This document shows, piece by piece, positions 2,598 to 56,868 of a stretch of 64,000 nucleotides of DNA. The stretch's first letter is position 1; each line of letters opens with the position of its first letter. The notes beneath the pieces were generated by a model that was not told the origin of the DNA, searched no databases, and was given only the letters and a program-made list of their open reading frames with translations. The DNA is from Candidatus Micrarchaeota archaeon. GTDB taxonomy: Archaea > Micrarchaeota > Micrarchaeia > Anstonellales > Bilamarchaeaceae. The stretch spans positions 640,001 through 704,000 of the forward strand of contig JBDRCX010000006.1 of assembly GCA_043821365.1 (NCBI GenBank). Direction: 5' to 3'. The translations under genes and the position numbers were made by a program.

Positions 2598-2850
2598 TGC
2601 TCCTGCCGGGATTTGAACCCGGGTCCTCAGAGTTCTCTCGCGCTTTTTTAGGAAAACATCAGAGAACGGAATTCTCTGTGCCCCATAAAAACGAGGAATC
2701 GTTTTTATAGGGAAGCGCCCAAAAAACCGTGAACAGCAAACCCGCTCAGAAAGCTGGTTTGAAATTAACGAATTTTTTTGATCGACCTTTTTTTGTAAAA
2801 AAAGGTCGGATGAGAGTCTGATATCCTTGACCGGTCTAGACTACAGGAGC
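2598..2850 (-). tRNA. tRNA-Glu(CTC) with a 178-nt intron at canonical position 37/38 (intron 2633-2810); CCA not encoded
   Basis: 5' exon GCTCCTGTAGTCTAGACCGGTCAAGGATATCAGACTCTCA; 3' exon CTCTGAGGACCCGGGTTCAAATCCCGGCAGGAGCA; central helix CTCT/AGAG with an AA/C bulge. Confidence 0.85.
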
Positions 2851-37525: not shown

Positions 37526-38398
37526 ATGAAAACTCCAGTAACAATAGTAACGGGATATCTTGGTTCTGGCAAAACCACTCTTCTTCGCAAAATTATTGGT
37601 GAAACAAAGAAAAAAATCGCCATTTTAATGAATGAATTTGGTAATATTGCTATCGACGGAAAAATAATCGAAGGAAAAAACATCAAAATCACAGAATTAG
37701 CAGGTGGTTGTGTCTGCTGTTCATTGGCAGGAGAACTAGAAGAGGCTATGAAAGAAATAATCAAAACAGTGAATCCAGATTGGATGATTGTTGAAACAAC
37801 TGGAGTAGCAGAACCTTCTGCTTTGGCATATGATGTAATGAAGAATATCGAAGGGGTTAGGTTGGATGCTATTGTTACGGTGGTTGATGCTGATGCTTTG
37901 GTTAAATTCACAAACCTAGGGCACACAGGTACCGAACAAATAGAACTTGCAGATGTTCTAATTGTCAACAAATCAGATCTAGTAACAAGAGAACAATTGG
38001 TTGGAATCAAACAAAAACTAACAACAATGAATTATAGGGCAATTCAGGTTGAAACCAGATATTGCCAGGTTGATCTTGATTTTATCTTTGGTGTTGAAAG
38101 AGAAGAAATACCAACATATACTCATGGGCATAGGCCAGAATTTCAATATTTTGATTTTGTTTCTGATAAAACATTCAATTATGAAAAACTAGAGAAGTTT
38201 TTTGAAGAACTTCCCAAAGAAATCTACAGAAGTAAAGGCTTTCTACTTACTGATAAAGGAACTTTTTTAGTAAATCATGTCGCCGGAAGAGTTGTTTTTG
38301 ATAGTTTTAAAACAGAAAAAAACGAATTGGTTTTCATCGGGAATAATATTAAACAACATGAAAAAGCAGTAAAACAAAAATTAGAACAATGTATTTAA
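37526..38398 (+). CDS. CobW/COG0523-family metallochaperone GTPase
   Basis: GYLGSGKTT, NEFG, GGCVCC, ETTG, NKSD; CobW_C domain. Confidence 0.9.
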   Translation: MKTPVTIVTGYLGSGKTTLLRKIIGETKKKIAILMNEFGNIAIDGKIIEGKNIKITELAGGCVCCSLAGELEEAMKEIIKTVNPDWMIVETTGVAEPSALAYDVMKNIEGVRLDAIVTVVDADALVKFTNLGHTGTEQIELADVLIVNKSDLVTREQLVGIKQKLTTMNYRAIQVETRYCQVDLDFIFGVEREEIPTYTHGHRPEFQYFDFVSDKTFNYEKLEKFFEELPKEIYRSKGFLLTDKGTFLVNHVAGRVVFDSFKTEKNELVFIGNNIKQHEKAVKQKLEQCI

Positions 38399-38418
38399 TT
38401 AGTTCCTAAAAAGAAATG

Positions 38419-38588
38419 TTTGGATGAACCAAAGCTTCGATGATCTGTTTGCCAAGCGTATGAGAAGCCGCGGTGACTGGTTGCGCTTTTTGAAAAACAA
38501 CATTGTTGCATGGCAACAATGTGCCAATTGTTCGACTTATCGAACAATAAGGAAGCGCGCAAAAATTGGTTTTGCTAATTTGTCCAAA
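38419..38588. ncRNA. Candidate structured RNA/DNA element containing a four-way-junction module (38483-38558)
   Basis: Perfect hairpins CATTGTTGC/GCAACAATG and TTGTTCGA/TCGAACAA inside GCGCTT/AAGCGC; outer TTTGGA/TCCAAA pairing. Confidence 0.5.
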
Positions 38589-38634
38589 TACAAAATAAAC
38601 AGGGTTTGAGGGACATCCCCTTGAGTGAACAAAT

Positions 38635-39066
38635 ATGCCTTACAAATTTATAGATGGAGTAACAATGGCTGATATTGCATTCGAAGCAACTGGGAAAAGT
38701 TTAGAAGAATTACTGGAAAGTTCGGGTCAGGCGTTAATGAATACCCAAGTGTCTGATTTGAAAAAAATAAAACCAAAAATAGAAAAAAAAATCGAGATGA
38801 AAAGCCAGAATGAAGAAAGATTGGTTCATGATTTTCTTCAGGAACTGATTTTTCTTAAAGATGCAGAACTTTTACTTGTAAGTAAGTATAAGATGAAAAT
38901 TTACAGAACAGAAGTTGGAATAATACTGAAAGCTGTTCTGAAAGGAGAACCAATCGACAATACAAGGCATGAAATGTTAGTCGATGTGAAGGCAGTTAGT
39001 TGGCACAAATTCGAAGTAAAAAGAGAAAATAAAATGTGGAAAGCATTTGTAATTTTGGATGTCTAA
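38635..39066 (+). CDS. Archease (RtcB cofactor)
   Basis: ADIAFEATGKSLEEL, LVHDFLQELIF, DVKAVSWH, FVILDV. Confidence 0.9.
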   Translation: MPYKFIDGVTMADIAFEATGKSLEELLESSGQALMNTQVSDLKKIKPKIEKKIEMKSQNEERLVHDFLQELIFLKDAELLLVSKYKMKIYRTEVGIILKAVLKGEPIDNTRHEMLVDVKAVSWHKFEVKRENKMWKAFVILDV

Positions 39067-44586: not shown

Positions 44587-44851
44587 GCCTCGGTAGCTCA
44601 GTCCGCCTTTTAGAAAAAGGCGGCCCAAAACTTATTGTTGAACACTTCGTGTTTTGGGTACGTCGTCTGTTAAAAGGCTGGAGTAACCGGTAGAGCGGCT
44701 GACTGTTACAAACTTTTTTGGAAAAAAAGTTTGATCAAAAAACTTTTAACGAGTTTTTTATCATTTTAGGAAATAGCAAGCAAGTTTTTGCGCCGCTTTT
44801 TCCTAAAAAGCGGCAATCAGCAGGCCGGAAGTTCGAGTCTTCCCCGGGGCG
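44587..44851 (+). tRNA. tRNA-Asn(GTT) with two introns: D-loop (about 44604-44687) and 37/38 (44709-44815)
   Basis: Acceptor GCCTCGG/CCGGGGC; D stem GCTC/GAGC; anticodon stem GCTGA/TCAGC with CTGTTA|A; T arm GGAAG-TTCGAGT-CTTCC. D-loop junctions are approximate. Confidence 0.85.
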
Positions 44852-56755: not shown

Positions 56756-56868
56756 GGCCACGATAGTATAATGCCTTGAACGGCATTCAAGATTTGCCTG
56801 CAAGGCATGCAATGGTAGTATAGGGGCTTGTGGAGCCCTAGGCCCGAGTTCGATTCTCGGTCGTGGCC
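56756..56868 (+). tRNA. tRNA-His(GTG) with encoded G-1 and a 41-nt D-loop intron/insertion (about 56774-56814)
   Basis: G-GCCACGA/TCGTGGC-C; anticodon arm GGGGC-TTGTGGA-GCCCT; T arm CCGAG-TTCGATT-CTCGG. Confidence 0.85.

Follow-up and report, generated by a model that had tools for sequence, protein, structure and literature searches.

IS200/IS605 elements have hairpin ends, transpose as single strands and leave no target duplication (PMC6006769). For tRNA introns, PMC4090602 gives the Thermoproteales as the only accepted example of intron transposition, and a 2026 census of tRNA introns in Asgard archaea identified no general route for their arrival (10.64898/2026.10.13.758758). Here we describe a short structured sequence that lies in a tRNA intron and in a gene spacer of a Candidatus Micrarchaeota archaeon, whose genome of 1.2 Mb is assembled in six contigs. 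The analysis started from a window of 64,000 nt (C6:640001-704000), and positions below are those of the window unless a contig is named. The original prediction held that two places in the window share a four-way-junction module, one copy in the intron of a tRNA-Glu gene and the other directly upstream of archease, the gene of the RtcB cofactor; it offered as readings an unnamed structured RNA or a mobile cruciform element, possibly serving the RNA-splicing machinery as a recognition tag. We concluded that the module is most likely mobile palindromic DNA, and that the four-way junction probably consists of two selfish palindromic repeats, one nested in the other. New here are the proposed nesting of the two repeat families, the preference for palindromes, the pairs of filled and empty sites, and the explanation of the archease-side copy through a small RNA.

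Two copies of a four-way junction in the window

Two covariance models were used. R1 covers the composite four-way junction and was built from three copies (copy 1 of the window and two copies from outside it); R2 covers the double-hairpin part alone. The features of the two window copies are as follows.

2640-2718, plus strand: composite four-way junction, copy 1, inside the tRNA-Glu intron and antisense to the tRNA (R1, 100.4 bits)
2640-2645 with 2713-2718 and 2646-2649 with 2653-2656: helices P1 and P2 of copy 1, followed by the module (2657-2712)
2657-2712, plus strand: double-hairpin module of copy 1, made of P3 and P4, with the conserved TGCCCCAT...ATAGGG core (R2, 65.7 bits)
2719-2727, plus strand: tail of the host hairpin-and-tail repeat at copy 1, CCAAAAAAC
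38483-38558, plus strand: composite four-way junction, copy 2, untrained (R1, 34.6 bits, E 1e-6)
38483-38488 with 38553-38558: helix P1 of copy 2, enclosing a T/A-run region (38489-38497) and the module (38498-38552)
38498-38552, plus strand: double-hairpin module of copy 2, with a P3 like that of the own-genome copy C6:321410 and a P4 of a different subtype
38559-38566, plus strand: tail of the host hairpin-and-tail repeat at copy 2, GCAAAAAT

Each copy has a P1 helix of GCGCTT/AAGCGC, a weak helix P2 between a T-run and an A-run, the hairpins CA-P3-TG and CC-P4-GG, and a (C/G)CAAAAA tail. The sequence is as the prediction described it, and the resemblance is far above chance: the common 5' motif is found twice in the window against 0.00 expected from 100 shuffles. 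The (C/G)CAAAAA that follows both copies turned out to be the tail of a repeat made of a hairpin and a tail, which is described below. With RNA parameters both strands of both copies fold better than shuffled sequence (z -4.0 to -4.9), and with DNA parameters they do so with z -6.3 to -8.2. The minimum-energy fold of copy 1 with DNA parameters is the full four-way junction on either strand; P2 is left unpredicted by RNA parameters. In copy 2, P2 is marginal: DNA parameters give it 2-3 A-T pairs at most, and neither centroid contains it. A tRNA-like reading of the junction was rejected, as it has neither T-loop nor D-loop motifs and gives no match to the tRNA model.

The surroundings of copy 1 are the following.

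2598-2850, minus strand: tRNA-Glu(CUC) gene, with exons 2850-2811 and 2632-2598 and a 178-nt intron (2633-2810) at position 37/38, delimited by exon alignment to orthologues
2783-2808, minus strand: intact (empty) hairpin-and-tail repeat at the 5' end of the intron (C6:642783)

Copy 1 thus lies within the intron of this minus-strand gene, as had been proposed, 7 nt from the 3' splice site. ARAGORN at default settings reported no tRNA in the window; with introns allowed it found the tRNA-Glu gene and its 178-nt intron, with the anticodon mislabelled. The size of the tRNA-Glu intron across the genus ranges from about 0 to 180 nt. The tRNA-Glu(CUC) gene and archease are on a shared contig, 3-11 kb apart, in at least 12 relatives, and are 36 kb apart in this genome.

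The surroundings of copy 2 include a candidate small RNA and the archease gene.

38422-38480, plus strand: small RNA candidate of ~59-68 nt with a K-turn-like motif, between cobW and archease
38635-39066, plus strand: archease gene (Pfam PF01951, 2e-35), a neighbour that lies outside the element

Copy 2 begins 2 nt after the end of the small RNA, and its end lies 77 nt before the start codon of archease. The small RNA candidate is present at 11 of 30 archease loci of the genus (the relatives are L048, L050, L052-L054, L057, L058, L062, L063, and L066), with a TATA-like box ~25-30 nt upstream and, in most relatives, a U-run terminator after it. Its 5-bp stem covaries (GCCCC/GGGGC, GCUUC/GAAGC, GCUCC/GGAGC) and is flanked by GAUGA and UGA in a K-turn arrangement, and its loop, UGCCAAGCG, is invariant; Rfam has no match for it. 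We rejected the idea that it is a C/D guide, as the box-like motifs are degenerate and there is no clear 3' CUGA. Pairing of its loop with the anticodon arm of tRNA-Ala(GGC) was also rejected, since the conserved complementarity of 8-9 nt is at chance level in this genome. In this genome and in G012, G011, and G047, the small-RNA U-run is replaced by the hairpin-and-tail repeat, and the T-run of the hairpin may now act as the terminator of the small RNA. The archease neighbourhood of copy 2 is therefore explained by a conserved small RNA that ends in a common hairpin-and-tail repeat. The copy does lie directly upstream of archease, as predicted, but there is no tie between the two: with R1 and filters off, just two of the 29 genus loci of archease have the element, one in this genome and one in G018, and the two copies differ in position and lie on opposite strands. 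The closest relative (G024), whose archease is 87% identical, has no spacer between cobW and archease. We concluded that the proximity to archease and RtcB is coincidental.

A genus-wide family with strong covariation

Searching the genome and its relatives with a covariance model, as the prediction had suggested, yielded further copies. R1 matched 25 of the 40 genus genomes, as many as 14 times in a single genome; such genome-wide counts are lower bounds, because the prefilter of the genome searches missed window copy 2 with both R1 and R2. A DNA search of relatives brought out additional copies with other closing stems, both in the same genome (C6:554305 and C6:321410) and in other species. 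With R2, over 150 matches came from 28 of the 40 genomes (12 had none), and many of these matches are outside the context of a T-run hairpin with no tRNA motif nearby. Beyond the genus, R2 has matches in 11 of the remaining 43 genomes of the family, while 77 genomes that represent 11 further families of the order gave none; the element is lineage-restricted.

The covariation on which the prediction was built is real and strong. In 32 clean, non-overlapping copies, 93.9% of the cells are paired and two-sided changes are seen in 29 of 33 pairs; none of 500 shuffles was as good, and slid partners were only 42-51% paired. Constant features are AAACA 5' of P3, TGCCCCAT...ATAGGGAAG around P4, and a bulged base in P3. 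P4 also carries a C.A mismatch in 24 of 26 copies, which is a G.U wobble on the opposite strand. Against Rfam 15 at the gathering threshold, the whole window gave one tRNA elsewhere and nothing for the element, and a permissive scan of 38380-38650 gave chance-level matches only (E 0.3 or worse). Covariation, however clear, is no proof of RNA function when the element is a repeat: compensatory changes of the kind expected of an independent non-coding RNA gene are present, and DNA hairpins under selection would look identical.

Among 31 four-way copies, 28 lie within tRNA genes, in introns at position 37/38, in the D-loop and in the T-loop, and the introns belong to many tRNA types, as expected of a transposed intron family. 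Ten of the copies in tRNA genes are on the same strand as the tRNA and 18 on the opposite strand, and the tail can be on either side. The constant orientation and syntenic conservation that mark an independent non-coding RNA gene are thus not seen here, as the element is also absent at orthologous sites. Outside tRNAs, the module is found in intergenic DNA, in the end of an insertion sequence (IS), and in a long open frame. The last of these is a 54-nt copy in a 1830-nt open reading frame of another genome (G018:C35:3498-3551, L037), apparently in frame. A replication-strand bias was considered and dropped: the clear own-genome copies are all on the plus strand of their contigs, yet they are too few and the GC skew of C6 is too noisy.

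These data weigh against the reading of the junction as a functional structured RNA, that is, a four-way domain shared by pre-tRNA introns and the archease leader that would serve recognition by EndA, RtcB, or archease or would stabilise circular introns. The compensatory changes extend over all four helices, the junction bases are conserved, the mismatch turns into a wobble on the other strand, most four-way copies are in tRNA genes, and a copy stands upstream of archease in two genomes; all of this could be expected of such an RNA. However, copies run with the host transcript as well as against it, the module is missing from orthologous introns and from the small-RNA hairpin of a relative (see below), 27 of 29 archease loci are without the element, the two archease-side copies agree neither in position nor in strand, copies also lie in an IS end and an open frame, and Rfam has no matching family. 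We regard this reading as improbable. The suggested family is indeed unnamed in Rfam, but its identity as an RNA gene is not supported, and neither is the proposal of a recognition tag for the splicing machinery, given the use of either strand, the empty orthologous hairpins, and the copies outside tRNAs.

Hairpins with and without the module

In the hairpin-and-tail repeat, one arm is 4-5 variable bases and CTTTTT, the other, across a short loop, is AAAAAG and the complement of these bases, and (C)CAAAAAC follows. The double-hairpin module is 49-61 nt long, with CA-P3-TG joined directly to CCCCAT-P4-ATAGGG. When CA...GGG is deleted from the first four own-genome copies, a perfect palindrome is left in each case: core, CTTTTT, loop, AAAAAG, and complementary core. 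The genome has at least 43 intact hairpins of this kind, with a CAAAA tail on one side in 40 of 43, and shuffled genomes have none. Filled hairpins number five, the first four and one in a T-loop intron (C3:58387-58467), which holds a different module subfamily at the identical A-run position. In the 31 four-way copies, the insertion point read in module orientation is always in the A-run just 5' of AAG or AGG. Both strands of the host offer an A-run site because the hairpin is palindromic. The hairpin-and-tail repeat is common in tRNA introns and at gene ends of this archaeal family. Further intact repeats of the window are those at C6:684603, 684709, and 684792 (window 44603-44792), in tRNA-Asn introns, and at C6:696733 (window 56733), which adjoins a tRNA match at 56807-56860.

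Orthologous sites, filled and empty, were compared at four places.

Second hairpin of the tRNA-Glu(CUC) intron: filled in this genome; uninterrupted in G022, G006, and G011
Hairpin and tail 2 nt after the small RNA, between cobW and archease: filled in this genome; uninterrupted in G012
Apical loop of the small RNA, with the module alone and on the opposite strand: filled in G018 (AA^AAG); empty in G005 and G053
Left-end hairpin of an IS200-type element: filled in this genome (C3:96443-96498); empty in G048 and G045

The orthologous empty sites cover T-run hairpins, the small-RNA loop, and the IS end hairpin, as distinct from the other flanking inverted repeats. In the tRNA-Glu introns of the three relatives, a central hairpin stands between two hairpin-and-tail units. 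None of the four filled/empty comparisons has a visible target duplication, and the flanking bases vary, though they are rich in A and often read AA^AAG. In the only sequence-matched pair, G018 against G005 and G053, the A count is unchanged, and in each filled window hairpin the T- and A-runs are balanced; the equal A count and the balanced runs fit insertion without target duplication. In metagenome contigs of three DNA runs (two studies) the module is present every time at 38483-38558, and the contigs neither differ there nor contain a joint across it. An empty allele at this site is thus not seen in these contigs, which are blind to rare variants. The public runs listed for this sequence, with biofilm and groundwater sites among them, include no RNA run. 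The module at C6:58029 was rejected as a clean pair with its closest relative (G024), as it is part of a larger insertion of ~120 nt beside the 3' end of a tRNA. This insert (C6:57940-58140, L139) is bounded by a direct repeat, TGGACTTG, that includes the last bases of the tRNA, an arrangement that suggests a different, larger insertion event.

We propose that the module inserted into the A-run arm of the hairpin, 2-3 bases from the hairpin base and apparently without target duplication. The insertion would split the hairpin into P1, consisting of the variable core and CTT/AAG, and P2, consisting of the remaining T and A runs; together with P3 and P4 of the module, these would give a junction without unpaired bases. 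The conserved bases next to the junction would then be the module ends and the constant part of the hairpin, and the distal stems, which differ and still pair, would reflect module subfamilies and a need for hairpin formation.

The surroundings of copies that were not selected by P1 are consistent with a preference for palindromes. A flanking exact inverted repeat of at least 6 nt is present at 22 of 47 copies vs. 10% of random positions, and one of at least 7 nt at 14 of 47 vs. 3%. With such a preference, the module keeps yielding three- and four-way junctions. We suggest tentatively, and with more doubt than confidence, that the module seeks palindromes, recognising DNA hairpins or cruciforms over sequence, integrating without target duplication, and enlarging tRNA introns stepwise. 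In a bolder version, perfect four-way junctions may be substrates of junction-binding or junction-resolving proteins that drive the spread.

Two further readings take the filled hairpin as something other than a nest. The first takes the four-way junction and its tail as a single composite element that was copied as one unit, with the intact hairpins as deletion derivatives. Dozens of copies do share one arrangement, in which the place of the module in the A-run is constant. Against it, the P1 cores are diverse (GCGC, GTAC, GTTC, AAAC, CCGC, and others), matching the diversity of the empty hairpins; core types and module subtypes occur in mixed combinations; two unrelated module subfamilies share one position; the module is also found without any T-run hairpin; and there are about 43 empty hairpins for 5 that are filled. 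This makes a single unit highly improbable. A twintron, in which the module would be a bulge-helix-bulge (BHB)-type intron excised by EndA both from the outer-intron hairpin and from the small RNA, is just as far-fetched: the module does lie within RNA genes, interrupting tRNA introns and, in G018, the small RNA, its flanks pair together like exon helices, and a splicing endonuclease of broad specificity is reported for the lineage (PMC3488258), but the helices abut with no unpaired junction bases, the two 3-nt bulges and 4-bp helix of a BHB are absent, insertion on either strand would need a spliceable motif both ways, and copies lie in intergenic DNA and an IS end without a host RNA.

Mobility and comparison with known systems

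The "mobile cruciform element" that the prediction had offered as its alternative fits the data: there are empty and filled sites, both orientations, and varied locations. The module would be a non-autonomous DNA repeat, either entering the A/T runs of palindromes or undergoing precise loss from them. It presumably moves as DNA, and selection would act on the hairpin shape needed for mobility, not on an RNA function; copies would survive where they are harmless, as in spliced-out introns, at the end of a small RNA, and in spacers. The strict TGCCCCAT...ATAGGG, the C.A mismatch of P4, and the bulge of P3 could nevertheless serve a function other than transposition, and an RNA role in either orientation may exist, since most four-way copies are in tRNA introns.

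A single-strand, hairpin-recognising (HUH-type) transposase is our best guess for the mobiliser; that the module is in fact moved by a Y1/HUH enzyme seems on balance unlikely. There is one Y1 transposase in the genome (C3:96623-97072), which scores 109.7 bits with the IS200 model and 31.1 bits with the REP-associated model (cut-off 80). It belongs to the sole IS200-type transposase element of the genome (C3:96443-97120; L077:1286-1962), which has a module in its left-end hairpin. The end hairpins of this element are of the CTGCGGGC type and unrelated to P3 or P4. By R2, the module adjoins only 2 of 13 Y1 loci. Y1 genes are present in 9 of the 40 genomes of the genus, with no enrichment for the module (6 of 9 vs. 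25 of 40 overall). The resident Y1 transposase was therefore set aside as the mobiliser, its end hairpins being unrelated and themselves interrupted by the module and its presence not tracking that of the module; it is kept only as a guess.

REP and REPIN sequences, which are mobilised by RAYT transposases (PMC3116915, PMC5581495), resemble the repeats described here in several ways. Both are short imperfect hairpin repeats that occur in tens per genome and form doublets, and both are non-coding, lineage-restricted, and long-persisting. Unlike in the REP system, no RAYT was found here and the sole Y1 gene fits the IS200 model; the present repeats are archaeal, occupy mostly tRNA introns instead of intergenic DNA, and nest in a second repeat family.

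With non-autonomous IS200/IS605 derivatives (PMC6006769) the module shares subterminal imperfect hairpins with a bulge or mismatch, the apparent lack of a target duplication, and what may be strand-specific insertion beside a short motif, which is here the A-run. These derivatives differ in that the module hairpins are not those of the resident IS ends, the module having instead inserted into the left-end hairpin of that IS, and in that the presence of a transposase does not follow the presence of the module. Rickettsia palindromic elements, to which there is no sequence relationship, are comparable in that a palindromic repeat is accommodated in a gene without breaking the frame, as apparently with the 54-nt copy in the 1830-nt frame.

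The closest parallel within tRNA genes is the intron transposition of the Thermoproteales (Fujishima et al., 2010, as reported in PMC4090602), where related intron sequence is likewise found in different tRNAs and at different positions. In contrast to those introns, the units here are short palindromic modules that are also found outside tRNA genes and nest in one another; the introns therefore appear to grow by accretion, not by whole-intron copying. The building blocks are visible, in that a large part of the introns consists of one palindromic repeat, into which a second inserts, and the lineage is thus a tractable system for intron accretion and possibly for palindrome-targeting transposition. 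If true, a palindrome-seeking module would be a concrete and observable route for the growth and diversification of enzyme-spliced introns.
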